Below are positions 8,070 to 57,714 of a stretch of 64,000 nucleotides of DNA, piece by piece (position 1 is the stretch's first letter; every line of letters begins with the position of its first letter). Made by a program: the position numbers and the translations under genes. The stretch comes from Cyanidioschyzon merolae (taxonomy: Eukaryota): assembly GCA_000091205.1 (NCBI GenBank), contig AP006497.2. One strand, given 5' to 3'. The notes beneath the pieces are model-generated. The model did no database searches, was not told the DNA's origin, and saw nothing but the letters and a program-made list of their open reading frames with translations.

Positions 8070-9339
8070 AGACCTCGAAGCACCGAACTGGGCATTGTGG
8101 TATGCAGAGAATCCGATCCGTGCGAATCCATGCGTTTGAAAGTGAAACGTGAATGAGATACTGTAGAAACCTTTAGACTGGGATGACGTACACGTGCAGC
8201 TGGATTCGTTTCTCGACTCTGCTGTACGCTTTCGCGTCCACCTGCGTGCCAAGGATGCTATCGTGCTTCTCGTTGAACGAATTTGCCTCTGAAAGAGTCA
8301 TTTCCTGATGCAATCATCAAAGTCACCAGGGGCCGATGCGCCCATTCAATGGACCGAAATCTTGGACCGAAAATTGAGCTGGCAATGCGGTCTTAATGCT
8401 TGCGACAAGAGCAGAGCCACTCAGTACAACGTTTGCAGGGAGAACCCGCATGCTCAGCAAAAGGAACACCACTCTAAATTGTTTTCTTTGGGTGTGAATT
8501 ATTTCTCCGAAACGTGGAAGGAGGAGATGTTCGGTGAGTACCCTTGCGGACTGAGGTGCGGCAAAGCTCACAGAGCTCTTCCCTAGTCTTCCTCAAGAGC
8601 GGTAGGCCTCGCAGGGAGCAGGTGTAACGCTTTGTGGCCCTTGAGTCCCTTCTGTCCAGGTGCAGGATCCAGTCAACCGTCATTGCTTCCAGCATGCAGG
8701 CGATCCAGACCAACTCCTCCGCCGTTCCAGTCAAAGGCCGGCTTTCTGCATGTCGCAGACGCAGCATGCGAGAACGGCTGTGGGCAAACCAGAGCAACCT
8801 CGTATGACGTGGCAACCGGTCCCCAGATGGTGGCCATTGTCAAGCGCGTCACAAAATAGTTCCGCAAATGGAATCTAGACGAAACTCCCAGCAGGAACCC
8901 ACATTGCTGTAGTGGATTTTGCGTACACTGTTGCATTCCGCTCACCTTGGCGTCAAACACTGCCACAAAAGATACTTCTTCAGCTCGCAAAAAATCTTCA
9001 TCTGGAACATTAGCGCGCAGAATTGTCGCTCTCTCTTCTATGGCATAGAATGTAGTCTCAGCTCTCCGGGGTGACAGTACCAGAACCCATTCAGAATGGT
9101 GCTCTCTCTCAACGCTCCATCTTTACTAGCCGCGATGTTTCGCACTATGGTATCCACGAATACCCGCTTCAGATCCAGAGCATCTGCTCAACAACACGCG
9201 TGATTCGTTATCCAGCGTGTAGGTGCGGTCACTGCAAGCCGCTCGCGAATAGCAGCACGAGCGGAACCTCGGATATAAAGCAATAATCACAGTTATATAC
9301 ATAGGTCTAATGCTGCCTCCAACCGCAAACGAAGCCGTA

Positions 9340-10090
9340 GGCATGATTCTTTTAGCTATACAGTTAATTCTAAATATACCATAATGTGTCCATGCTGGTG
9401 CGGACAAGGCTGCCATCCTTTTTTTGGTTTCACTCGGCCCTTCCATTTACCACGGATCCCAGAGTTCGGGATGGATGGGTAGTGGCGTTCGGGACGCGTC
9501 CATCATGCCCCAACCTACTTCAAGTTTCATGAATTTTTTCTTTCGGATATACTGGTCGTATTGTACGTTCTATCATGCGCTGAGCCTGCCGTGAGCACCC
9601 GCCTTAGCGCCTATACAGCTGGAGCAGATGCTGCAAGGAGACAGAACGGCTTTTCCGTACCACTTAAAGCGTCGACTCTAGGCGTGGTTTATCCAACACG
9701 AGGTCGGAGCACACAATCATTTAGCATACCTGCAAGATGCGCAGACAGACCTACTGCCTCCGGTAGCGCGAAGCAACGTATTACGAAACCATCACGACCA
9801 GTGCGACGCCCAGACGCAGCCTAGACACCCCTAGTCCCAACTTGGACTGCGTTGCAGATGAATTGCTCAGGTATCGCCACTGCACCCACCACTGGGAGAA
9901 GCACTTAGCAGGAGCCGGGCAGACTCGTTCGCTCTCGGGACCTTTCGCCTGGAGGGTACAGTTTCGGAAATGCGGTAAACCTTTCGCCCTTTTATAGCTT
10001 ACCGTAAAGAGAGGAAGATGTTTTTGCCGGATAGCTAGATAGTGGCTATTCTCTTCTCTTCTTCTCTATAGCTCGCTCGATACGCGCACC
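9340..10090 (+). repeat. Diverged dispersed repeat family B (~0.75 kb), copy 1
   Basis: By eye it aligns at ~70% identity with 18600..19350 and, in reverse complement, with 36600..36900. Shared blocks include ttcggatatac(c/t)ggtc, tgccgtgagcacccgcct, gcgcagacagacctactgcct and cgacgcccagacgcagc. No coding potential. Confidence 0.5.
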
Positions 10091-10325
10091 TCTGTATCTA
10101 GCAGGCATGAGTCATGGCGCGCGTCTCGCTGTTGAAGGAAACAGTGATCCTGATCATTAGCGTAACGCTATCATGTACATGTTGTAACGGTGTTGACGTC
10201 ACAGCAAACTATACTTATTTGTTCGATTGTGTTTTGAACTTCAACCAAGTGTGTTCAAGTGATTTTTCGCAGTTAATCGCAGACGTGCTCGAGAGTGCTC
10301 TCTTTCTCATAAAGAAAAAAGAAGG

Positions 10326-10787
10326 ATGGTTATGGAAACGGAAGTTGATTATTCTGGAGGCCCAGGGACGCCGGCTGCCAGAAAAAAACAAAAAATAGTG
10401 CCGAGTCCGGAAGAAAAGGAAGAGAAGAAGAACCGAAGGGGGGAAGTCCTACGTCGAATGCGGCAAAAAGGACGGCTGTACGACGAGATGATGGTGAAAA
10501 CCTTTCTTCTTGGACATATCAAGGATCCGTACAGGGAAAAGCTGCGAGACGCTATCGAAAAACGTGTCGACTCGTACTCCAAGAGTATTGTCAAGGCTTC
10601 GTCAGGACTGATGCATTTGGCGAGGGAGATGTACCGCGACGTGACGCACATGGAAACAGTCGATGTTCCTGACGAGTTTTTCGACAAGATGTTTATTCGT
10701 CAGCTGATGCCTGGCACAGAGAAAGCGCGGAAGGCAAACGAGCGGGTTCACGCTCTTCACGAAAACTACGCGGAATTCCGCTTCTAG
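10326..10787 (+). CDS. Transposon ORF1 (153 aa). The N-terminus is K/R-rich and NLS-like (PAARKKQKIVPSPEEKEEKKNRRGEVLRRMRQKGR); function unknown. It may be the N-terminal part of the Fanzor protein.
   Basis: It is conserved in copy B (VKTFLLGHIKDPYRE(K/R)L(R/Q)DAIEKRVDSYSKSIVKASSGLMHL). Both copies share an in-frame TAG separating it from ORF2. Copy B's equivalent is broken by a nonsense and a frameshift. Confidence 0.35.
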   Translation: MVMETEVDYSGGPGTPAARKKQKIVPSPEEKEEKKNRRGEVLRRMRQKGRLYDEMMVKTFLLGHIKDPYREKLRDAIEKRVDSYSKSIVKASSGLMHLAREMYRDVTHMETVDVPDEFFDKMFIRQLMPGTEKARKANERVHALHENYAEFRF

Positions 10788-10832
10788 GGTGCCCGATACA
10801 AGGGTGACGCGGATATTTAAAGCTATGGGGCG

Positions 10833-12479
10833 ATGAAGTACCTCACGAATCTGAAGAACTATTTGGCAATGAACCTCGAACGTTTCATGATACGCGCCGT
10901 GTTTGCGCTCTACCCTGGCATCTCTTGCAAAGGGATATGGACGATTATCAAAGGCATCACGAACGATCGCAAGCATGAAGATGAGGTCGAATTTGTCGTG
11001 AAGAAGGCGTCAAACGAGAGTACGAATTAGGATTCCGTCATCCGTGCGGTTGTACAAAAGCACTGTGCGGTACTGGGGTTGGCGAATCCAGCAGGAAAGA
11101 TATCAGAGTTGAAAAAAGATAAGGACAGATACTATCGCCTCGTCCTACGGTATTTCGTGTTTCTCGACCGAGAGCTCGAACGCAAGGCGGAGATGATGGT
11201 GAATAGGGAAAAATGAAGAGTGGGAGAGACGGAAGGCTTTCCTGATGGGGAAGCGCTTCGACGTGGTTCCAATGTGCAACATCAGGTCACATTTTGTGAG
11301 TATCGATTCAGGCGTCCTTCACGGCATCATGAAGGAGATCAGTCCCGAGTTCAATGTTAACAGGAAGGAGTTCAGCGGTGAAAACTGGGAGACGTCCTGG
11401 AAGAATATCTTCGATTTCAAACGTCTGAAAGTGAGCGAGCAAAAGTTGTTCACTGGGATGATCGAAACCGATGGAGTAGCCTTGTGTGTACACTATCGGC
11501 GGTTGAAGAAAGATCGTCCAGTTCCGCCTTCGACTGCGCCCTTGACGAAGGATGAAGAAAACAAAGAGGAGGATCCTGCGATGCAGGAGGTTGAGGATAG
11601 CGACCTTGTCGTTGGCGCGGCGAAGGATGAAGATGGGAAGGAGGCGGATCCTGCGACACAGGAGGTGCAGGATAACCACTATATCGTTGGCGCGGCCCCT
11701 GGGAATACGAATATCATAACCATCGCAGCACCGTAGCGTGTGGAAGATGGTACTGATGGTAACTTGCGTCAGAAATATATGCGTCTTTTGAGGTTCTCGA
11801 GAGCGAGATACTATCGAGAATCCGGTATGATGAATGCAAAGAAGAAAATCGAGATATGGAATGCAGGAACGAAAGAGCACCTGGAAGCTTTGAGCGAGGT
11901 GACTAGCCGAGGTGCCGACTTTCAGGCTTTTCTGAAATTCATGGATGATCGCGTTGCCCATTGGGATGCACTGTACGAGGAGTATACAAAGCCCCGGTGG
12001 GCACGTTTGCGTATGAATCTATACGGTGGGAGGCAGCGGGCGTTTACCAACTTTTTTAATGAGTTGAGTGCCCTCAAAGAAGACGAGACTCAAAGGCTCG
12101 TAATAGCGTACGGAGCAGGGCGATGGAAGACCCAAGAAGGAACTACGCCAGCTCGAACGACAAGAACGTACAAGGAGTGTCCACGGCTTTTCGTTACAAT
12201 ACCGATAGATGAGTTCCGAACGTCCTATACACACCATGAACTGGGGTGTACCCTTCAGAGGGTCGTGATGGAAAAGTGCCAGAGGAGCCCTGAGGAAATA
12301 GCAATTACGGACCGCTGACAGACGAGCAAATAGGAAGGAGGGCGAAAGTTCGTGGACTTCTTGCATTAGTGAGTACAACCAGTGATGGCAAGAAACGTAT
12401 GGAGTTTGTTAACCGAGACTTTAACGCCGCAGTCAATATACGGAGATGTGCGGTGCTGGAGAATAGACCTCCAGAGTAG
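10833..12479 (+). pseudogene. Fanzor (eukaryotic TnpB-like, RuvC-fold RNA-guided endonuclease) pseudogene, copy A
   Basis: Motifs read directly: [15 protein letters not shown] (RuvC-I Asp), IPIDEFRTSYTHHELGC (RuvC-II Glu plus Zn-finger-like HHCC), and RDFNAAVNIRR (RuvC-III, in a different frame at 12348..12479). Disruptions relative to copy B are a GAG>TAG at ~11031, a 2-bp deletion near 11190, an AAG>TAG at 11737 and a 2-bp deletion near 12320. Confidence 0.7.
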
Positions 12480-12942
12480 ACAAGAGGGAATTTTGTTGGA
12501 CAACCCCTCAAAGTGGAACTATATGAGAGAACGTTGGAAGCAGTAGTAGGTGGCCGGTCCGAAAAGACGAGGAGGCGTCTGCACATCAGCTGAAGACTTC
12601 TTGTCTAGGGCCCCGGTCGCCGCCACTACTGTACACGCCCGACGTCGTTCGACTTTAGAAGGGCGTTCGGATCGACTAGAACTTGGGGCAAGTATCCGAA
12701 GTGTTCGGGACTCAGTGTCGACAGGGCTCTTCCCGACCCATGCTTCTGAAGCATGCTCTTTTCATCGGATATGCGGTCGGTAGTCTGCGTCATCCTGCAG
12801 CGTCTCTCTGCTGACCGGTACTCTCCCGAATTCGGCACACTGGCAGTAGAACGCATCCTTCACATGCCTTGAACCATACCCTCCACTGCCAACATGCGCG
12901 CCCTGGGGTCGCCCAAAGCATCCGCGACCGAGCTTTGCATAT

Positions 12943-18599: not shown

Positions 18600-19350
18600 T
18601 CAAGGAATGAAATTGAAATTCATGGACATGTGTATAAAATTTGTAATTTCGGACACGTCATGTTTGGGACGGAGCGCTTGGCGATTTCTTTCCGATGACG
18701 AGTCGGTTCCATTGACCATAGACCCCAGATTGCGGGATGGGTATTGGCTTTCGGAAAAGCGCCCATCATGAAGCACCAACACTCAAGTTCAGTCTCCCAT
18801 ACTTCATTTCGGATATACCGGTCATTTCGTATGTTCCACCGTGCGCAGATTACCTGCCGTGAGCACCCGCCTTTGCGCCTAAACCGCTGTACCAGATGCA
18901 TGACGGAGACAGCACGGCATTGACAAACCACAGAGGGCGTCGGCCCGAGGCGTGGTTCATCCGACACCGGATCGGAGTACATAATAATTCTGGGAGCCTG
19001 CAAGCTGCGCAGACAGACCTACTGCCTGTGACAGCGCGAAGGTATAGACTAGGAGTCCACTGCGACCAGGGCGACGCTCAGACGCAGCACACGTGCTCCG
19101 AGTTCCAGAATGAAGTGCGTTTCGGACGATCCGCTCACATCTTAGTACAGCACCCGCAACTGCAGAGTCGCACGGAGCACCTGCCCGGCAGACTCGATCA
19201 GTCCGCGGAACCTTCCGCCCAGAAGACAAACTTTCGACAAAACGAAAAGGTTCTCCCTCTTGTAACGTTCACCGTAGAAGCAGAATGAAATCTTTATCTC
19301 GTTCCTACTTAGTAGTTCGTTTCTGTTCTTTTTTCTATACAGCCCGCGCC
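18600..19350 (+). repeat. Dispersed repeat family B, copy 2
   Basis: Colinear with 9340..10090 at ~70% identity, lying between the MESH1-like gene start and ORF 19376. Confidence 0.5.
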
Positions 19351-24729: not shown

Positions 24730-25895
24730 TAACTCCTAAAGTGAAGCTGGACGGACCCCTGCCTCCACAACAACTGGAAATCCAAGTCGCTTTCGCTCCC
24801 CAAATTCTGTGATCCGTTGACTCGCTGCGCAGTACGGCCGCGCGCCCTGCTCCAGGTGATCGCGCGCTCTGGGGGGGAGACCCTGAGAGCGCCGGCGTCG
24901 CCTTGGCGTCCATCTACCGGTCCAATCAGCGACAAAATGGACAGATCAAAAGACACCGCCTGCGCACGGTTGTTGCGAGAACTTTCACCTCAATGGTGTT
25001 TCGCTCCCAGGGGCGTGTGATGAAAACGTATTTTCGCGGTTTATGGCAGAACTGTTCCAAGTACGTCCATTTGAAGGACTAAAATTTGCAAGAGAAGGGC
25101 ATGGACGTGTAAGTCGGGGACCCAGAAAGCCGTCATGAATAGATGCCGAACAAAAGAAAAAATCCTTTTCTCACCGATTATCGAGCGTAGAAGAGCAAGT
25201 GATGATGATGATGAAGAAGGTGGCAGAGAAGAGGGGAGGTAGACGGCCAAAAGCGCATGCTTGATGCAACAATGACGAAACTACAGTGGCACAGAGGTCA
25301 CGAGTGACTTCGAGGAATCATTGCAAATGTGAGTTCCACCAGAGTCAATAAACGCAAAGAGTTCGTGAAACGGGACTTCGACACCGTCATTCATATCAGA
25401 CGATAAGTGATGCCGACGACGAGACCCGAGGAGGTGTCACAATCCTACTTTCTGGGGCAGCCTCTCAGGCTCGATATGTGCCTGGGTAAACTGAACCCGA
25501 TAGCATCGGGCCGCTCAAAAAAAGGCTGGGAGCGTCTGCGCGTGGGTATATGTATTTTCCTTCCGTGGTCGGGAAACGTATTTTGGTTCATTGGCTGTCG
25601 ACATGCGTCGATTGCTCTCGCACAGTGATGCTCGCCTGGATCGCTATGATCGCGGATCGCGGCTCCTTTCAGAAGCACTGGGCAGCGATAGAGACGTGCG
25701 CTGCGCCACAGTCCAATGTAGAGCAATATGTGCCGCTGTCACTCGCGAGGAGAGCTGTGGGCTCGCTAATCCTTGAAAGCGATACAAGAGGTGCACTACG
25801 GGCACGAGACGCACTCGTTGGACTGCTTCACTTGGCGGAAACGAGCAGCCAGTGGAATTTGCGGACGAACAAAAGTCAGCGGCATGAAGACCAAC

Positions 25896-27295: not shown

Positions 27296-27877
27296 ATCTC
27301 GAGCCTGCGCTACATCCGGGTCAGATGAAAAAGGAACAGTAAACAGTTCGTTCTGGTCTAGATGTTTGATTTTTTCGGATCTTATGAACGATGTACAGCA
27401 TCGACACTCAATGACCAAAAGTAGCACTATTGGATTCATATGCTGTTTACCGATGCTCGGTCGCCGTTTCGGGATGGCATCTTCGGCGTTTCGTAGCTGG
27501 AATCGTAATGGAACCTAAACCATGAGCATTTATAACGCCCGCGAGCAACGGCTCCTAAAAATACCCGATATCGTTATCCAGTGTATACGGACTGGCCTCC
27601 ACGCTTCTCTGCTCTGTATGTGCAGCGTGCCCAAATCGTGCGGTCTTCGAGCCTCTTCGGTTTCTGTTCCGAGGCTACGACTGGGCGCATCAATGCTGGC
27701 CACTGGATTCTTGGGGAACTGCGGTCGACGTGCTCCCTTGGCGGCCTGTTTGCATGGTCATCCCGAAAGTTCACGGAGATGCTCATGTCAAACGATCGAT
27801 TCGGTTCGAAAGACATATCCTGCTCTCTTTGTGGCCACCGAAGACTCCCGTTTTTTTGAACAGCACCGTGATACCTT
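27296..27877 (+). repeat. Dispersed ~1.3 kb non-coding repeat family R, copy 1 (3'-truncated, ~0.58 kb)
   Basis: Near-identical to 46776..47357 and 55986..56550. It starts tgcgctacatccgggtcagatgaaaaagg and diverges from the other copies after cagcaccgtgatacct. Confidence 0.8.
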
Positions 27878-28686
27878 CCTCTAATGGGTATAAACCACCA
27901 GACACTCCCTTGTACTGCTGAAATTCGAACATGGGCGAAAGTTCGGCAAATTCAAACTCGGACATCTGGGAGGGAAAAATGAAGCATTCACAAAAGTATC
28001 CTGCAAATCACGCTATTGAAGACTGTGGGAAGTGACCCAAACTTTAGTGTGCATGCACGTGTGAATGAGCTTGTCCTAGTTTATTCCCACAGAGAGGTAC
28101 TTGCCATTCTGTAGAAGCGGCGGCGACGACGACGACTACTCAAGTCGCTCGCAGGCGTTCTCAGAGACTGATGCTATCGGCGGAAACTGCACCCCAGCGT
28201 CACCTCTAAAGCAGCATGCACAGCAATGTAGATAGGAACCAACGCGTCGAAAAACGAATTGACAGTTTCAATATCGCACGTCTCGTTCAGCGCATGTCGC
28301 GAACACGGCGCATGCACCCTCGTTGCCGAATCCCTAAAACAGCCAGCTGGAGCCCCAGAGTCGTTTCATACATCGAATTTATTCACGACGAGCATGTATT
28401 CAGGATCTGCGCTTCATGCGGGGAGGCGACGCTCCACGACCACCATGCCATCTCGTCGCAAACAGTGCAACTTTCCATACCCGGGCCGAGGCTGCTGATG
28501 TAGGCGAACGATTTCTAAGGCCTTCGTCACGAGTGCCCTGGTGCCCATGCCATCACGCACAGAGGTCACCCGCGGTAGACATGCTTGGAGCACCAGGCTA
28601 TGTAGACGCCGATGGAAGCTGTGCTTTCGAAATCGTGTTCATTGCGATGACAACTCTACCAAGCTGGTACATTCACTTTCGGCAAT

Positions 28687-29779: not shown

Positions 29780-32560
29780 CGCCGTCAGCGGTGAACGCTG
29801 CCGTACGAACCAGAGGATACCTGTCCTAAGCGCAAGCAATATACCTGGATCACGGAGATGCGTACGCGGCACGACGTCTGCGTCCGGGCGGCCTGGTATC
29901 ACGTCCGCGACAAACGTCTTTCAAAAGAAACACGTTGCTGCCAGTGGTACAGAAGTGGCCGCAAACGCGCCTTAGACAAATTGGCACCAATTGTTGTATA
30001 GACGCCTCCCCGTCTTTTTCGACCGGCCACCTACTACTACTGCTTCCAAATTCTTCTCATATAGTTCCACTTTGAGAGGTTGTCCAACAAAATCCCTTCT
30101 TGTCTACTCTGGAGGTCTATTCTCCAGCACCGCACATCTCCGTATATTGATAGCGGCGTCCAAGTCTCGGTTCACGAATTCCATCCGTTTCTTGCCATCA
30201 CTGGTTGTACTTACTAGTGCAAGTAGTCCACGAACTTTCGCTCTCCTTTCCATTTGCTCCTCCGTCAGCGCTCGGTACTTTTTTATATTCTCAGGGCTCC
30301 GCTAACACTTTTCCATCTCCACTCTCTGAAGTACGCACCCCAGTTCATGGTGTGTATACGAGGTTTGGAACTCATCCACAGGTATCGTAACGAGACGCCT
30401 TGCGCACTCCTTGTACACCCTCGTCGTTGGAGCTGGCGTAGTCCCATTTCGTGTCTTCCAGCACCCTGCTCCGTACGCTACGACGAGCCTTCGAGTCTTG
30501 TCCTCTTTGAGGGCACTCAACTCATTGGAAAAATTCGCGAATGCCCGCTCCTTCCCACAATAAAAATTCATTCGAAAACAAGCCCATCGGGAATTTGTAT
30601 ACTCCTCCCATAGTGCATCCCAATTGGCTACACGAATTGCCATGAATTCCCGAAAAGCTCCAAAGTTCGCTCCTCGGCTAGTCACCTCGCTCATAGCTTC
30701 CAGGTGATCTTTCATTCCTGAATTCCAAGTCTCGATTTTCTTCCTCGCATTCATGGTTCCTGATTCTCGATAGTATCCCGCTGTCGAGAACCTCAAAAGA
30801 CGCATGTCTTTCTGACGTAATTTACCATCAGCACCATCTTCCGCACGCTTGGGTGCTGCGATGGTTATGATATTCGTATTTCCAGGGTCCGCACCAACGA
30901 CAAAGTCGTTATCCTCCACCTCCTGCATCGGAGGGCCAGCCTCCTCTTTGTTTTCTTCATGCTTCACCGCGTCAACGACAAGGTCGTGCCCCTCAACCTC
31001 CTGTGTCGCAGGATCCGCCTCCTTCTCATCTTCATCCTTCGTCACGTCAACGACAAGGTCGTTAGCCTCCACCTCTTGCATCGGAGGACCAGCCTCCTCC
31101 TCTTCTCCATCCTTCGTCACAGGCGCAGCCGAGGGAGGGACTGGCCGATCTCTCTTCAACCGCCGATAGTGTATACACAAGGCTACTCCATCGGTTTCGA
31201 TCATCCCAGTGAACAACTTTTGCTTGCTCACTCTCAGACGTTTGAAATCGAAGATATCCTTTTAGTACGTCTCCCAATTTTCACCGTTGAACTCCTCCCT
31301 GTTAACATTGAACTCGGGACTGATCTCCTTCATGATGCCGTGAAGGATTCTGGAGTCGATAGTCACAAAATGTGACTTGACTTTCCACATTGGAACCACG
31401 TTGAAGCGCTTACCCATTAGAAAAGCCTTCCGTGCCTCCCACTCTTCATTTGTCTCTTCACTCAGTTTCACCTCTGCCTTGCGTTCGAGCTCTCGGCCCA
31501 GAAACACAAAATAGCGCAGGATGAGGCAATAGTATCTTTCCTTATCTTTTTTCACCTCTGATATCTTTTCTGTTGGATTCGCCAACCCCAGTACCGCACG
31601 GTGCTCTTGTATAACCGCGCGGATGACGGAGTCCTCATTTGTGCTCCTGCGTGACGCCTTCTTGTAGACAAATTCGACCTCATCTTCACGCTTGCGATCT
31701 TTCATGATGCCATTGATAATCGCCCATTTTCCATTGCGAGAGATGCCCGGATAGAGTGCAACCACGGCGCGTATCATGCAACGTTCGAGGTTCTCTGTCA
31801 AATGGTTCTTCAGGTTCGTGAGGTACATCATCGCCCCATAGTCGTAAATATCCCGGTCACCCTTGTACCGAGTACCCTCGAACCCCTAAAAGGGATGTTT
31901 TTCGTGTAGGGCATGCACTTGCTCATTTTTCCCTCCGTGTTTGCCCTGAACCAAGCATCAGGTGACGAATAAAGGTCACGTCAAAAACTCGTCTGGAATC
32001 TCGACCGTTTCGATGTGCATCACGTCGCGATACATCTCCCTCACCAAATGCATCAGTCCTGACGACGCCTTGACAATACTCTTGGAGTACGAGTCGACAC
32101 GTTTTTCGATAGCGTCTTGCAGCCTTTCCCTGTACGGATCCTTGATATGTCCAAGAAGAAAGGTTTTCACCACCATCTCGTTCTACGGTTGTCTTTCTTG
32201 TCGCCTTCAACGTAGGGCCTCCCACTTTCGGTCCTTCTTCTCTCCCTTTTCTTCTGGACTCGGCACTGTTTTTCGTTTTTTTCTGGCAGCCGGCGACCCT
32301 GGGCCTCCAGGATCGTGGACTTGCTTTTTCATAGCTTTCCTTTTTTAGTTTTTTTTTGAAAAACAACGCTCTGTGAACGCTTCTGTTATATACTGCGAAA
32401 AAAACTTGAATACACTTGTTTGAGGTTTGAAAGAAAAATGAACTAAAAAACTGTACTCTGCTAAGACCTTAACGGAAATCCAATTTTTCCAGTACAACAA
32501 CACGCTACTGATCAGGATCGCGTTTCCCTTCAACAGCGGCATTCGCATCGTGTCAGTAGA
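29780..32560 (-). mobile_element. Fanzor/TnpB-family transposon, copy B (inverted relative to copy A; degenerate)
   Basis: Colinear with copy A across a 5' small ORF (MRMPLLKGNAILISS vs MARVSLLKETVILIIS), ORF1, ORF2 and the 3' non-coding region. Homology decays gradually toward 29780. Confidence 0.7.
30104..31831 (-). pseudogene. Fanzor/TnpB-like RuvC nuclease pseudogene, copy B. The single reading frame is retained but interrupted by in-frame stops.
   Basis: All four ORF fragments (31262..31831, 30302..31231 and the RuvC-III segment ending at TAG 30104..30106) share one frame. The interruptions are TCC TGG>TAC TAA at ~31260 and CAG>TAG after ...VEMEKC. The motifs read [34 protein letters not shown] and RDLDAAINIRRCAVLENRPPE. 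Confidence 0.7.
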
Positions 32561-41642: not shown

Positions 41643-42770
41643 GGTTCTCTTCCCAGTATCATCAGCAACAGCCTTTGCGAGATTCTTCGGCGACTGCTCC
41701 CTTTTCCGGTCTCTTGTCTCTGGCGTGCCATAGCCGATCTCTCCTGTGATCGATGTACTATGTCAGCAGTCAACGGATGCCGATGGCAGCATCGAAGCCT
41801 CGATTTCGCTGCTTCTGGCTGTCGCCGACGCGCTTCATGAACAGACCGTAGATGCGATCTACGCCCCGCTTGGCATGTTCGCCTTCTTCATCATATACCG
41901 CCTCTGTACGCCGTATACAGCGGTGACGCTTCGCTACCGTCGGTTATTCGCGTATGTCGACTGCGCGTCTTCCGCGGGCCGTCCTACAACGCGTGAACGC
42001 TTGCCTCATCGCCCGGCACATGCCCCGCCATGGCACAGAACGCTTCTCTGGGTGCGGTCCTCGGTTTCAGCACGCGGTGCCGTGCACTACGATTACGTGC
42101 TCCACCCGGGCGATCCTCTCGCCATTGTCTCTGTCCTCTGCACGAGCAAGCGCGCGCTCTTCCAATGGATAGATGATTTATGGAACGCGATGTCGTCCAC
42201 GATGAAACTTGTGTCGGAAGGAAAACCAGGGCTGGATCAGCATTCGAGAGATTCGGATGCGTCAACGCTGCCTCTGTACGAATCGATGACGCACTCTGCA
42301 CTAGCCGCACTCGCGGCGATACAAGAAGGCCGGTTCGAAACCTCTTCTACGTGCAACCGGAAGCGTCGTGTGCCTCAGGGAGTACAAGCCATGAGGTATG
42401 CCATGCTCCTGGGGAATGCGGTTCCGTTAGTGGCCTCAGAGAGAGGATAATTTGGCTTTCCGTGAGATTGTTTATTTGATGTGAGTGTCTCAGTGAACTC
42501 TTGGCGTGGACTTGCGAAGAGGTCGATGAGGGTCTTCGATGGGTTTTTCCTATTCAATCCAGATGCGCAGAATGCTGAGCCCACGACTTGCCTACAAAAA
42601 CTGGTTGATCGAAAACTTGGTGAATGCTTATGTTGAGCATGCTGCGCGCAATAAATGGAGAAGCGCGGAGTCTCGTACTTACGCATTGGATAACGATATC
42701 GGTTCTTTTACGGAACCCTGCTGGAGGGCGTCGTGCTTCATCATGATTTCGATAAAGGATCGAATTCCAG
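41643..42770 (+). repeat. 1.1 kb duplicated block, copy 1 (direct repeat of 52957..54085 at ~99% identity)
   Basis: It contains an identical 234-aa ORF (41746..42450 matching 53063..53767) of unknown function, with only a few substitutions between copies. Flanking homology continues at lower identity for tens of bp. Confidence 0.8.
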
Positions 42771-43102
42771 CAGTAAAGCATCCGAGGCGCTACAGCAAAA
42801 TGACGACCGAAAAAGCCACATCTGGCGTATGCATCCGTACGCTCTTGTTGCTGCAGGTCGAACGGTGAGGCTGGTCATCCCATAAAATTCTGACAAAATC
42901 GACATGCAGTTCAGTATGCCACGTTAGCGTTGACATGGATGTCGCGCCTCTGAATTGTGTGCGCAAATTTGCGCACCGCAGTTAACCAGAGTCGCCTGTA
43001 CTCCATGATTGCTCAGGATATTTCCGGCGTGATACACGGAACAGCAAGCCTTGATCATTGCAGCACGCATCGTACCCAATCAGAAGCCGCAGACGAAAAT
43101 CG

Positions 43103-46775: not shown

Positions 46776-48068
46776 TGCGCTACATCCGGGTCAGATGAAA
46801 AAGGAACAGTAAACAGTTCGTTCTGGTCTAGATGTTTGATTTTTTCGGATCTTATGAACGATGTACAGCATCGACACTCAATGACCAAAAGTAGCACTAT
46901 TGGATTCATAAGATGCCTACCGATGCTCGGTCGCCGTTTCGGGATGGCATCTTCGGCGTTTCGTAGCTGGAATCGTAATGGAACCTAAACCATGAGCATT
47001 TATAACGCCCGCGAGCAACGGCTCCTAAAAATACCCGATATCGTTATCCAGTGTATACGGACTGGCCTCCACGCTTCTCTGCTCTGTATGTGCAGCGTGC
47101 CCAAATCGTGCAGTCTTCGAGCCTCTTCGGTTTCTGTTCCGAGGCAACGACTGGGCGCATCAATGCTGGCCACTGGATTCTCGGGGAATCGCGGTCGACG
47201 TTCTCCCTTGACGGCTTGTTTGCATGGTCATCCCGAAAGTCCACGGAGATGCTCATGTCAAACGATCGATTCGGTTCGAAAGACATATCCTGCTCTCTTT
47301 GTGGCCACTGAAGACTCCCGTTTTTTGAACAGCACCGTGATACCTCACTCTCTCACGGAGGTATGCTCCAAGAGGCTCTCCTCTGTCTCCCATTCGCATG
47401 GACAGAGGTCTTCGACTCGGACTTGAGCTGTCGCAGTGAACGCTCCCAGTGCAGCGCTCATTGCCGGTCCGCACCGAGCGATCATAGACAGATCGACGAA
47501 TCTCGACTTCCTCTACATCCTTTACTTGCCGCACGCTACGTGTTTCATCGCGGGTAGCATCGCGCTCCACACATCTTTTTTATCGAATGAAGCAGTGTGC
47601 GTTTGCGTGTGCAACGCATAGAGCAAGTGCCGAGACGATCTCCCGGGAAAAGCACGTCATCGAAGTGCGTCGCACCGGCTGCTGAAGCCGTGCATGGCAT
47701 CGAAAGAGGCGTCCTGTGTCCATCAATAGGGTCTGTCTAGCGACCGAACAAAAGGTCACGGGTTATAGGACGGCGCTCGGTCGGGAAGATGCGTTGGACA
47801 TACCGAAGCACCTGACCACAGTCAAGCGTTATTGCCCGAAAAGGCGCACCAGGCCGTATACAAAGATGAAGAATAGAACGGGCGAGGCGTGGATCGCTGC
47901 TGCTGACTCTACGTTACCTTTTGTCGATAACAGCCAGACGCAGCGAGCTTCAGAAGAGAAAGCTGCCGTCAGCTTCATTCAACAGCTGAAAAAGGATAAC
48001 GATCGCAGAAGAGACCTGAATACGTAAAGCCGGAGAAAACAGACTGAGAAAGGAGCAGAACGGCAGAC
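46776..48068 (+). repeat. Repeat family R, copy 2 (full length, ~1.29 kb)
   Basis: About 97-98% identical to 55986..57261. It contains only short ORFs (MSIYNAREQRLLKIPDIVIQCIRTGLHASLL..., MSINRVCLATEQKVTGYRTALGRE...) with no recognisable domains. Confidence 0.8.
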
Positions 48069-48394
48069 AAAGACCGATGAATATAAATCTAGAGATAAGA
48101 GAGCAGTGTCAGTGTTAGAGAACTCATTCTGACAAGAATCTGATGCGGTCGCAACTAGCTCCAGGCTGCCTACGCGGCGAGTTTGCGACGCACCTGCTGC
48201 GTCCAACGCTGCCGTGCCCCTGAACTATTAAATCCTGAAAAGGGAAAGTTATGTCGTCCAATGTACCGCATAGACTGCTTGATTACAAGGGTAACAGCAC
48301 TATCCGGTTGTGGAGCAATGCTTTCGTGGAGTATCGATTCCAAAATTTACTTGAGTCCGCAAAAAATGCGACTGAGCGCTGAGCACGGGTCCCT

Positions 48395-52956: not shown

Positions 52957-54085
52957 TTTTGGTCTCTTCCCAGTATCATCAGCAACAGCCTTTGCGAGAT
53001 CCTTCGGCGACTGCTCCCTTTTCCGGTCTCTTGTCTCTGGCGTGCCATAGCCGATCTCTCCTGTGATCGATGTACTATGTCAGCAGTCAACGGATGCCGA
53101 TGGCAGCATCGAAGCCTCGATTTCGCTGCTTCTGGCTGTCGCCGACGCGCTTCATGAACAGACCGTAGATGCGATCTACGCCCCGCTTGGCATGTTCGCC
53201 TTCTTCATCATATACCGCCTCTGTACGCCGTATACAGCGGTGACGCTTCGCTACCGTCGGTTATTCGCGTATGTCGACTGCGCGTCTTCCGCGGGCCGTC
53301 CTACAACGCGTGAACGCTTGCCTCATCGCCCGGCACATGCCCCGCCATGGCACAGAACGCTTCTCTGGGTGCGGTCCTCGGTTTCAGCACGCGGTGCCGT
53401 GCACTACGATTACGTGCTCCACCCGGGCGATCCTCTCGCCATTGTCTCTGTCCTCTGCACGAGCAAGCGCGCGCTCTTCCAATGGATAGATGATTTATGG
53501 AACGCGATGTCGTCCACGATGAAACTTGTGTCGGAAGGAAAACCAGGGCTGGATCAGCATTCGAGAGATTCGGATGCGTCAACGCTGCCTCCGTACGAAT
53601 CGATGACGCACTCTGCACTAGCCGCACTCGCGGCGATACAAGAAGGCCGGTTCGAAACCTCTTCTCCGTGCAACCGGAAGCGTCGTGTGCCTCAGGGAGT
53701 ACAAGCCATGAGGTATGCCATGCTCCTGGGGAATGCGGTTCCGTTAGTGGCCTCAGAGAGAGGATAATTTGGCTTTCCGTGAGATTGTTTATTTGATGTG
53801 AGTGTCTCAGTGAACTCTTGGCGTGGACTTGCCAAGAGGTCGATGAGGGTCTTCGATGGGTTTTTCCTATTCAATCCAGATGCGCAGAATGCTGAGCCCA
53901 CGACTTGCCTACAAAAACTGGTTGATCGAAAACTTGGTGAATGCTTATGTTGAGCATGCTGCGCGCAATAAACGGAGAAGCGCGGAGTCTCGTACTTATG
54001 CATTGGATAACGATATCGGTTCTTTTACGGAACCCTGCTGGAGGGCGTCGTGCTTCATCATGATTTCGATAAAGGATCGAATTCC
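52957..54085 (+). repeat. 1.1 kb duplicated block, copy 2
   Basis: See copy 1. The differences seen between copies are substitutions only, for example L>P and T>P in the 234-aa ORF. Confidence 0.8.
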
Positions 54086-54924
54086 CGCTGCAAAGAGTCG
54101 AGGAAGCCACTTGGAAAATACGACCGAGACTCCCAGAACTACCTAAGAATCCGTAAGCCGCCATTGTTGCACGTCCTTTTTCGAAGCTGTTCATCTAGAA
54201 AATTTCGGAGAATTCGAAGAGCAGGAATATGGCGAGCGATTCTGCGTCCCATTCTAAGCTGGCACGGGCCTAGAAGAAATGATATTTGAAGCTGCATCAG
54301 CATGCATTATTCGTTTGCTCGCAGCATCCGACAACTGTAGAATGACTCGATAGCCTCGAATCCACCCGGTAGGAGCACCAGCCTCCTTTCGATACGCATG
54401 CCTGTTCAAGAGCATCCCAGAGAAATGACCTCGGAAGGTACGGGACTCGACAGTGTGATATCGCAGAAGCATTGGGCTACTTCAGCATGTTCACCTACAA
54501 CGGCGCACTTGGTGCTGTGAATGTCATAGGGCGCCATGTGTACGATTGCCCCGCCCGATTCAGGGCTTGTATCTTTCCAGCAGGAAAAGTTATCCTCAAT
54601 TCGAGTGCTCCTTCCTGGAAGCGGTCGTGTAACAATGTGCTTTGAGGAATCACATGCCGCGCCTAGTCTAGACTTGAACGATGAAAGCGCCGCGACGATC
54701 TCGCTCGCTGCCTCACAGACGTCGGGCTCCGAGCGAAACCTAGTCGTTGCGGAGACCTCTTCTGCATGTCTGCAGCATAAATCGGATTTCTCTCGGGTGC
54801 ATCTTTTGAGCACTTCATGGAACGACAATCACAACGTTCCAATCGAGAGCCCTGGTTGTGTACTGCAATACCTCCGATTAGATCATCGAAGCCGGATTTC
54901 TCTGCTGTACCTCGTACGAGCATC

Positions 54925-55985: not shown

Positions 55986-57261
55986 TCAGATGAAAAAGGA
56001 ACAGTAAACAGTTCGTTCTGGTCTAGATGTTTGATTTTTTCGGATCTTATGAACGATGTACAGCATCGACACTCAATGACCAAAAGTAGCACTATTGGAT
56101 TCATATGCTGTTTACCGATGCTCGGTCGCCGTTTCGGGATGGCATCTTCGGCGTTTCGTAGCTGGAATCGTAATGGAACCTAAACCATGAGCATTTATAA
56201 CGCCCGCGAGCAACGGCTCCTAAAAATACCCGATATCGTTATCCAGTGTATACGGACTGGCCTCCACGCTTCTCTGCTCTGGATGTGCAGCGTGCCCAAA
56301 TCGTGCATTCTTCGAGCCTCTTCGGTTTCTGTTCCGAGGCTACGACTGGGCGCATCAATGCTGGCCACTGGATTCTTGGGGAACTGCGGTCGACGTTCTC
56401 CCTTGACGACTTGTTTGCATGGTCATCCCGAAAGTCCACGGAGATGCTCATGTCAAACGATCGATTCGGTTCGAAAGACATATCCTGCTCTCTTTGTGGC
56501 CACCGAAGACTCCCGTTTTTTGGACAGCACCGTGATACCTCACTCTCTCACGGAGGTATGCTCCAAGAGGCTCTCCTCTGTCTCCCATTCGCATGGACAG
56601 AGGTCTTCGACTCGGACTTGAGCTGTCGCAGTGAACGCTCCCAGTGCAGCGCTCATTGCCGGTCCGCACTGAGCGATCACAGACAGATCGACGAATCTCG
56701 ACTTCCTCTACATCCTTTACTTGCCGTACGCTACGTGTTTCATCGCGGGTAGCATCGCGCTCCACAAATCTTTTTTCAAATGAAGCAGTGTGCGTTTGCG
56801 TGTGCAACGCATAGAGCAAGTGCCGAGACGATCTCCCGGAAAAAGCACGTCATCGAAGTGCGTCGCACCGGCTGCTGAAGCCGTGCATGGCATCGAAAGA
56901 GGCGTCCTGTGTCCATCAATAGGGTCTGTCTAGCGACCGAACAAAAGGTCACGGGTTATAGGACGGCGCTCGGTCGGGAAGATGCGTTGGACATACCGAA
57001 GCACCTGACCACAGTCAAGCGTTATTGCCCGAAAAGGCGCACCAGGCCGTATACAAAGATGAAGAATAGAACGGGCGAGGCGTGGATCGCTGCTGCTGAC
57101 TCTACGTTACCTTTTGTCGATAACAGCCAGACGCAGCGAGCTTCAGAAGAGAAAGCTGCCGTCAACTTCATTCAACAGCTGAAAAAGGCCAACGATCGCA
57201 GAAGAGACCTGAATACGTAAAGCCGGAGAAAACAGACTGAGAAAGGAGCAGAACGGCAGAC
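55986..57261 (+). repeat. Repeat family R, copy 3 (~1.28 kb; the 5' end is ~15 bp shorter than copies 1 and 2)
   Basis: Colinear with 46790..48068. It diverges from copy 2 immediately after ...gagcagaacggcagac. Confidence 0.8.
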
Positions 57262-57714
57262 GAATCCATCAAAGGCTGGTGCTTATGATACTGAGAAGAG
57301 ACCCAGACGCTACAGTGTCCGCACGAGTTCGTAGACCCGTCCCTTTTTCCTGGCAGTGGTGTAGTACAGTACACGGACTCTGGATTTCACTCGTTCAAAC
57401 TAAGAGCTCGATACCCCCGGATTCTCGACCGCTCATGCTCCTGGATACGTCGGTAATGCTCCAGACTGATCTACGCTGTTTCACTTCAAGAGCCGCAGCA
57501 ACGAGAACAAGCTCAATAGCGATAAACAGTTGTCGCTCGACGACCTGACGCCCGCCGGTGACGCCCACCGTAGCGACGCGTGCCCACCGGCGACGGAGCC
57601 CTGCAGAGCTCTATATTCTTCCTCGTTGACCTCAAGTAAGCCTTGGAGCGCACTGCAGTCCGCTTCTTTATAGATTGATAGATCGAACGATACAGGTTAG
57701 CTAGAGCTAACGAT

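Follow-up and report, generated by a model that had tools for sequence, protein, structure and literature searches.

Positions 12480 to 12760 of the window (the whole 64,000-nucleotide stretch of DNA that was analysed) hold the 3' end of a dead CMe-1A transposon copy, and we judge, with modest confidence, that its last ~140 nt (12540-12679) are a plausible ωRNA relic. This region is inside the published CMe-1A consensus, plus about 90 nt of flank. An omega-RNA scaffold had been proposed here in the original prediction; as a predicted relic at the 3' end of the element it is plausible, and the anatomy proposed for it (coding status, end and guide flanks) was wrong. The features of the two copies, A and B, are the following.

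9441-10074, + strand: 5' TE-N2_CMe-like module of copy A (78.6% to the published CMe-1A 5' consensus)
10326-12608, + strand: decayed Fanzor1 ORF of copy A (three-frame translation, 40-copy consensus, published protein, profile matches)
12477-12479, + strand: premature nonsense TAG (L or W in homologues, TTG in the published consensus)
12480-12539, + strand: former coding sequence with the conserved C-terminal motif TRENFVGQPLKVELYEKKLE (frame open in A and B)
12540-12608, + strand: family-specific ORF extension of 22 codons plus the ancestral stop TAG 12606-08 (absent from distant relatives)
12540-12554, + strand: predicted 5' arm of the long-range helix (P1), with predicted inner helices at 12565-12606 (fold predictions)
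12609-12632, + strand: first part of the non-coding tail, a variable GC-rich segment and then the conserved GCCACTACTGT, the predicted P1 3' arm (12619-12632)
12633-12676, + strand: terminal extended hairpin, a decayed V1 in copy A (covariance model R1, 52.7 bits, E = 1e-13)
12668-12679, + strand: right-end boundary zone of copy A (49-insertion alignment, subfamily tail TTCGGATCGAC)
12680-12760, no strand: host flank unrelated to the element (conservation < 0.5, A vs B 32%)
29915-32538, - strand: copy B (one frame, about 8 in-frame stops, no TE-N2 module, V2-type terminal hairpin)

Two decayed copies of CMe-1A

The window holds one repeat twice, as copy A (10127-12634, + strand) and copy B (32538-29947, - strand), which are about 83% identical (blastn E = 0). 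The motif quoted in the original prediction, gaagcagtagtaggtggccggtc...ggaggcgtct, was located at 12538-12581; since it belongs to this 2.5-kb repeat, chance similarity is far from sufficient to explain it. Nucleotide comparison with the 3' region of the published 3169-bp CMe-1A consensus showed an identity of 88.8% for copy A (12022-12636) and of 87.1% for copy B (30562-29915), the latter aligned up to the final consensus base, and the C-terminus of the published CMe-1 protein (supplement) is exactly that of the consensus reconstructed here from 40 copies. Since the identity, the protein end and the consensus all match published CMe-1A, the element was already catalogued. On these comparisons copies A and B are decayed members of CMe-1A, a Fanzor1 family that belongs to Cyanidioschyzon merolae or to a closely related alga. 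In C. merolae the family has about 150 copies, intact ones among them, each about 80% identical to a consensus of ~3 kb; it is without terminal inverted repeats, and its 5' 635 bp are a separate element, TE-N2_CMe (Bao & Jurka 2013, Mob DNA 4:12, PMC3627910). The published consensus DNA terminates ...GTCTAGGGCGCGTTTGCCGCCACTACTGTACACCGCTGGCGGCAGCGTTTTTCTTTTGAAAGGCG (PMC3627910 supplement).

That the element is a Fanzor was borne out, and the profile matches and the CMe-1A identity place it in Fanzor1. A profile of 34 diverse relatives matched the Fanzor1 structures 9cf0 of Parasitella parasitica (E = 5.5e-20) and 8gkh of Spizellomyces punctatus (E = 2.9e-12); to reach these structures the profile had to include relatives of 31-47% identity, and an exhaustive HMMER search gave 1175 relatives. 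With the close family alone as query there was no match in Pfam and none in a PDB sequence search. The RuvC motifs (GxDPG, DEFRTS, NRDxNAAxN) are kept in the family consensus and in copy B. The AlphaFold2 model, made from a shallow alignment of 13 sequences, had a mean pLDDT of 31, too low for the model to be used. At two loci carrying distant protein relatives (L087:435-1343 and L089:349-1203, 39-43% identity) a DDE_3 (Tc1/mariner-type) transposase gene is located immediately upstream; unlike L087 and L089, the CMe-1A element has no DDE_3 transposase gene.

Copies A and B are pseudogenes, as are nearly all copies of the family. The ORF of copy A is damaged by two frameshifts, several in-frame stops and the replacement of the RuvC-I Asp by Ala (GAAPGNTN). 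The intact ORF of a Fanzor1 was found in neither copy, multiple stops being present in A and B and frameshifts additionally in A. The TAG of copy B is at 30107-30105 and its ancestral stop, TAA, at 29974-29972; the metagenome loci L031 and L033 match this locus, together with its flank, at an identity of at least 96%.

Several other repeats were observed. A unit of ~76 nt that encodes an acidic repeat is present in tandem inside the Fanzor ORF just upstream of RuvC-I (11546-11696; 30889-31120), and its copy number varies, with more repeat matches in B and in locus L002 than in A. A third, far more diverged fragment (25309-25467, + strand) corresponds to the RuvC-III part of the CMe-1A consensus (68% identity, E = 2e-10). 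Three other pairs of repeats in the window, 46791-48071 / 55986-57264, 41646-42851 / 52963-54170 and 27306-27882 / 46776-47351, are 97-98% identical, and these families are far younger than the Fanzor copies. The window also carries long intron-free ORFs, for example that of a 2038-aa RRP5 homologue, in keeping with C. merolae as the source of the family.

At the left end, the 5' ~635 bp of copy A (9441-10074) are TE-N2_CMe, as in CMe-1A. This 5' module is common to at least 22 metagenome copies and is absent from copy B, and solo copies of TE-N2 are located in the window at 18693 to 19114-19219 and at 36793-36591. A conserved TE-N2 core of ~160 nt (A 9535-9697) was also found inverted at metagenome loci, adjoining the 5' end of "short" Fanzor copies. 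A conserved T-rich run and a recurrent ..GAT come before the TE-N2 left end and lie beyond the start of the published consensus (CGATGAC...); the bases before the minimal Fanzor left end are ATN or CA and those before TE-N2 left ends are GAT, and they are either a target motif or element sequence. The part shared by all Fanzor copies, with or without TE-N2, opens with the palindrome GCGCTC-GGT-GAGCGC (~10085-10100; also at L021, L046 and L058), which is preceded by ATA, ATT, ATC or CA according to the type of junction. In the 3' part of TE-N2 (9878-10075, + strand) the consensus sense fold is unusually stable (z about -4) and includes the hairpin TTTTCCCCCTTTT..AGAGGGGGGAAAA. The idea of a "ghost element" was dropped, the 3' end of the TE-N2 module having no sequence similarity to the CMe-1A tail.

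Coding status and right end

The tail had been described as lying past the stop of ORF2, the TAG at 12477-79, whereas the same frame is open in A and B beyond this codon (PPE-stop-TRGNFVGQPLKVELYERTLEAVVGGRSEKTRRRLHIS-stop in A and PPE-stop-TRRDFVGQPLKVELYEKNLEAVVVGGRSKKTGRRLYNNWCQFV-stop in B), with an in-frame 3-nt indel between the two copies. Judged by its homologues, this TAG is a nonsense mutation and the ancestral stop lies elsewhere. When the C-terminal half was reconstructed and used as a protein query, 253 relatives of 70-82% identity were obtained; those that extend to the C-terminus have L or W at the TAG position and terminate in ...TRENFVGQPLKVELYEKKLEAVVGGRSKKTGRRLHVSWRRFV. In the majority consensus of 40 independent copies, 802 codons form a single open frame, which encodes a protein of roughly 790 aa ending ...RRLHVSWRRFV-stop. 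Because the homologues and the 40-copy consensus read 43 codons beyond 12477-79, the ancestral stop in A is TAG 12606-08; the TGA at 12591-93 in A is a second nonsense mutation, the codon being TGG in 33/49 copies. The codon at 12477 is hypervariable family-wide (TGG in 10 of the 49 copies, TAG in 9, TTG in 8, TCG in 8 and CTG in 7; TGA in 2 other copies). At L009, the nearest relative of copy B, it is TGG, so that the TAG arose more than once and its presence in both A and B is no mark of a common truncated ancestor. An alternative genetic code with TAG as a sense codon was ruled out by in-frame stops of several kinds and by frameshifts in A; L or W at that codon in intact homologues also speaks against it.

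With the TAG recognised as a nonsense mutation, the label "non-coding tail" holds for 12609 to about 12668-12679 and fails for 12480-12608, which once coded for the C-terminus and has decayed. The motif F[VI]GQ[PR]L is retained in relatives of 35-47% identity, whose proteins stop about where 12540 lies, and the solved Fanzor1 proteins end earlier still, within a few residues of the position equivalent to the TAG (RPPxFSR). The diversity at codon positions 1, 2 and 3 was 0.114, 0.114 and 0.290 in 12330-12476, 0.214, 0.117 and 0.228 in 12480-12539, and 0.237, 0.205 and 0.242 in 12540-12605, a codon periodicity that is strong upstream and gone in the final 22 codons. Since the periodicity is gone and relatives end before them, these 22 codons look like a family-specific read-through, and the constraint on them seems to act on the nucleotides and not on the protein.

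Comparison of A and B confirmed ~100 bp of high identity beyond the TAG, with 91/101 positions identical (90%; 90.1%) over 12480-12580, a value equal to that of the upstream coding stretch 12330-12476 (90.5%). The identity was 57% over 12581-12608, 73% over 12609-12634, 49% over 12635-12679, where the terminal hairpin versions differ, and 32% over 12680-12760, which is unrelated sequence. Homology had been said to persist for another ~150 bp at lower identity, to 12760; the A/B BLAST alignment stops at 12634. The likeness of A and B in this region is the shared ancestry of two pseudogenes, and it does not by itself require an RNA function.

The end of the element was located with 86 related loci from eukaryotic metagenome contigs, which represent 49 distinct insertions in different gene neighbourhoods. 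Conservation over these 49 insertions was 0.78-0.96 at 12330-12608, 0.62-0.89 at 12609-12668 and < 0.5 beyond about 12670. The alignment shows the right end of the element in A at about 12668-12679, instead of the limits 12580 or 12760 that had been given for the tail. The published consensus terminates at the equivalent of 12667, and the 11-14 nt that are 3' of the terminal hairpin vary by subfamily (TTGTTGGTGCG, TTTGTTTCCAGGGG, or TTCGGATCGAC); the tail of copy A is of the 11-nt TTCGGATCGAC type, common to L009, and L052 has a variant form. Both of the guide flanks first proposed, 12580+ and 29999-, are inside the ancestral ORF, which stops at 12606-08 in A and at 29974-72 in B; if an ωRNA was made, the flank 12680-12760 is where a guide would be read. 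No terminal inverted repeats joining both ends of copy A were found, and no target-site duplication was visible at the insertions inspected. The TE-N2 left end bears an apparent ~15-nt similarity to the V2 right end in reverse complement.

Predicted RNA fold of the last ~140 nt

The consensus tails of the subfamilies fold into one predicted architecture, made of a long-range helix, inner helices and a terminal hairpin. The predicted long-range helix has 14 bp and pairs coding GCAGUAGUAGGUGGC (12540-54) with non-coding GCCGCCACUACUGU (12619-32). The structure prediction that had been suggested as a check gave a strand-specific, unusually stable predicted fold for the last ~140 nt (z of -3.4 to -5.5 for the sense strand). 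The sense folds of the V1 consensus, the V2 consensus, the published consensus (which is independent) and copy A (12536-12679) were predicted at -70.7, -64.4, -57 and -62.7 kcal/mol, with z values of -5.5, -4.5, -3.4 and -3.9, respectively, and for each of them 0/200 shuffles were as stable. The antisense z was +0.3 for copy A and -1.85 for the published consensus. Over the 49 copies, which are not independent samples, the mean z was -2.2 for the sense strand, -1.0 for the antisense strand and -1.3 for the upstream coding stretch. A sliding z-score scan of the all-family consensus gave an unremarkable z of -1.2 at 12520-12667; this consensus mixes both hairpin versions, and the scanned segment cut the last helix. 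An Rfam 15 scan of 9200-12900 gave only a chance snoRNA hit (E = 0.42), and Rfam may hold no Fanzor ωRNA model. The tails of the distant relatives L088 and L089 were also folded and are not comparable, their element ends being undefined; the L087 contig stops 32 nt past the stop codon.

In well-kept copies the final ~45 nt are one hairpin of 16-19 bp, for example CACCGTTGGCGCCGTTCGA-CTT-TCGAACGGCGTTGATGGTG in L021. This hairpin exists in two versions, V1 (CGTCGTTCGA-CTT-TCGAACGGCG) and V2 (AACGTTTTTC-TTTT-GAAAGACGTT), which differ by six substitutions that shift the register, and a long hairpin is formed by each. The re-paired V1/V2 hairpin speaks for selection on structure and is the only sign of it; the V1/V2 contrast represents roughly a single evolutionary event.

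Copy B is apparently mosaic: its body is nearest to L009 (12% distance), which has a V1 hairpin and an A-type 3' tail, and its own tail (29915-29990) has a V2 hairpin, as opposed to the V1 of L009 (L009:3847-3997). This suggests that 3' ends have been exchanged between subfamilies.

The search for compensatory substitutions between A and B, which had also been suggested, gave 0 compensated double changes vs 19 pair-breaking differences. RNAalifold on the 49-copy tail alignment gave no consensus pairs. When the consensus fold was imposed on the 49 copies, the long-range helix was without double-sided changes, with 84% of cells paired, and the pairing measures for the whole structure were barely above those of shuffles. 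The covariance-model alignment of the terminal hairpin, in which the V2 copies were partly recovered and which was contaminated by palindromic minus-strand hits, showed no covariation (0.082 vs 0.118 for shuffles). Since almost all copies are pseudogenes, most of the variation is neutral decay and selection is hidden, and for this reason absent covariation is weak evidence either way.

The predicted structured segment 12540-12679 is in the sense orientation, overlaps the end of the ancestral ORF (12606-08) and runs to the right end, like ωRNAs. In an active ancestor, the sense strand of 12540-12679 would have encoded the ωRNA scaffold of the family. The long-range helix, formed by the stretch that carries the codons A-V-V-G-G, would enclose helices of 9 bp and 4 bp around the stop codon, and the terminal hairpin would come next and reach the transposon end. 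A transcript that ran past the right end would carry roughly 15-20 nt of flank as its guide, taken from about 12680 onward in A and from below about 29901-29915 in B. As is the case in characterised Fanzor1 and TnpB systems, the ωRNA-loaded Fanzor1 would cut a matching empty site beside a motif that lies 5' to the left end. In A and B this putative machinery would be a relic, with the protein genes broken and the helices eroding. More tentatively, the family may have made an ωRNA of ~140 nt whose 5' half is inside a 22-codon ORF extension held by RNA pairing and whose hairpin doubles as the transposon end, in two interchangeable versions; the Fanzor1 gene would then have grown over its own guide-RNA gene. 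No description of an ωRNA for this red-alga family was found in the literature searched.

A reading with no RNA function, in which neutral shared ancestry of former coding DNA and a transposon end explains the segment, the hairpin is a DNA-level transposition signal and the long-range complementarity arose by accident or as a side effect, is possible and in our view less probable. Hairpins with such a role at the DNA level are the subterminal hairpins of IS200/IS605 and the 3' hairpin of Helitrons. Every formal covariation test was negative, in agreement with this alternative, yet the stability of the fold is strand-specific and depends on G-U pairs. The equal A/B identities of 12480-12580 and of the upstream coding stretch also agree with it, as does the pseudogene state of almost all copies; however, where the predicted structure starts, codon periodicity is lost and conservation is nevertheless above background. 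Terminal inverted repeats and visible target-site duplications are absent, as in hairpin-dependent transposons (Bao & Jurka, PMC3627910), and the minimal left end, with its short palindrome GCGCTC-GGT-GAGCGC, is a further point for a DNA-level signal, but every characterised Fanzor1 has an ωRNA at this position (PMC10432273, PMC11423790). A DNA-level role of the hairpin is, besides, compatible with an RNA role. The right-end structures of ISDra2, for example, are part of its right-end RNA.

It is very improbable that the ORF ends at 12477-79, with 12480-12580 as a non-coding scaffold and guides read from 12580+ (A) and 29999- (B): the TAG in 9/49 copies, the end of solved Fanzor1 proteins near the equivalent position (RPPxFSR) and the fall of A/B identity after 12580 fit this literal reading, but the TAG position is read as sense in the family consensus, in the published protein and in all longer homologues, F[VI]GQPL after the TAG is conserved as protein in the relatives of 35-47% identity, 12581-12679 can be aligned to the family in 49 independent insertions, and the TGG of B's nearest relative means that the TAG arose repeatedly.

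An ωRNA relic at the 3' end of a dead CMe-1A copy, the reading that we prefer, is of little importance beyond correct annotation, as the element and its consensus, this tail included, have been in print since 2013, the 3' location of Fanzor1 ωRNAs has been an established rule since 2023, and nothing here is new in kind. If it is true, it adds to the known Fanzor1 ωRNAs one from a red alga whose overlap with the ORF is unusually long, and it defines a scaffold, from 12540 to the right end, with which the reconstructed consensus protein could be tested. The lessons are that a stop shared by decayed transposon copies can be a nonsense mutation, that two copies can show "conservation past the stop" merely through coding ancestry, and that element ends need many independent insertions.

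Comparison with known systems

The published CMe-1A and the element described here are alike in size (about 3.2 kb), in the ~80% likeness of copies, in the lack of terminal inverted repeats and in the TE-N2_CMe module. They differ at the ends: on the right the published consensus reaches the base of the terminal hairpin and goes no further, and on the left it begins inside the conserved T-rich run, whereas our alignments suggest 11-14 extra subfamily-specific nt on the right and about 8-10 extra nt on the left. Bao & Jurka 2013 (PMC3627910) assigns no RNA to CMe-1A, and that paper is older than the discovery of ωRNAs.

In characterised Fanzor1 systems, much as the original prediction had stated for omega-RNAs, the ωRNA is located at the 3' end of the nuclease ORF and runs to the right end (PMC10432273). 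These ωRNAs are 75-150 nt long, occupy the interval from the ORF 3' end to the right end or overlap with the ORF 3' end, and take a guide of 14-15 nt from the flank (PMC10432273; PMC11423790). The candidate ωRNA of CMe-1A is like the Fanzor1 ωRNAs of Spizellomyces punctatus, Guillardia theta and Parasitella parasitica (Saito et al. 2023, Xu et al. 2024) in position, sense strand and size range, and a stem-loop adjoining the flank is present in these ωRNAs and in the predicted CMe-1A fold. The GtFz1 ωRNA overlaps 17 aa of its ORF, and the predicted overlap in CMe-1A is 22 codons. The conserved 7-bp SL1 is not assignable in CMe-1A. Spu-1 has inverted repeats of 30 nt, which CMe-1A lacks, and, unlike the characterised systems, the copies in the window are pseudogenes.

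In comparison with ISDra2 and the IS200-IS605 TnpB elements, CMe-1A differs by having no TnpA-type gene. It resembles them in having no visible target-site duplication, in its subterminal right-end hairpin and in a short conserved motif just 5' of its left end, which is either a target-adjacent motif (TAM) or element sequence.
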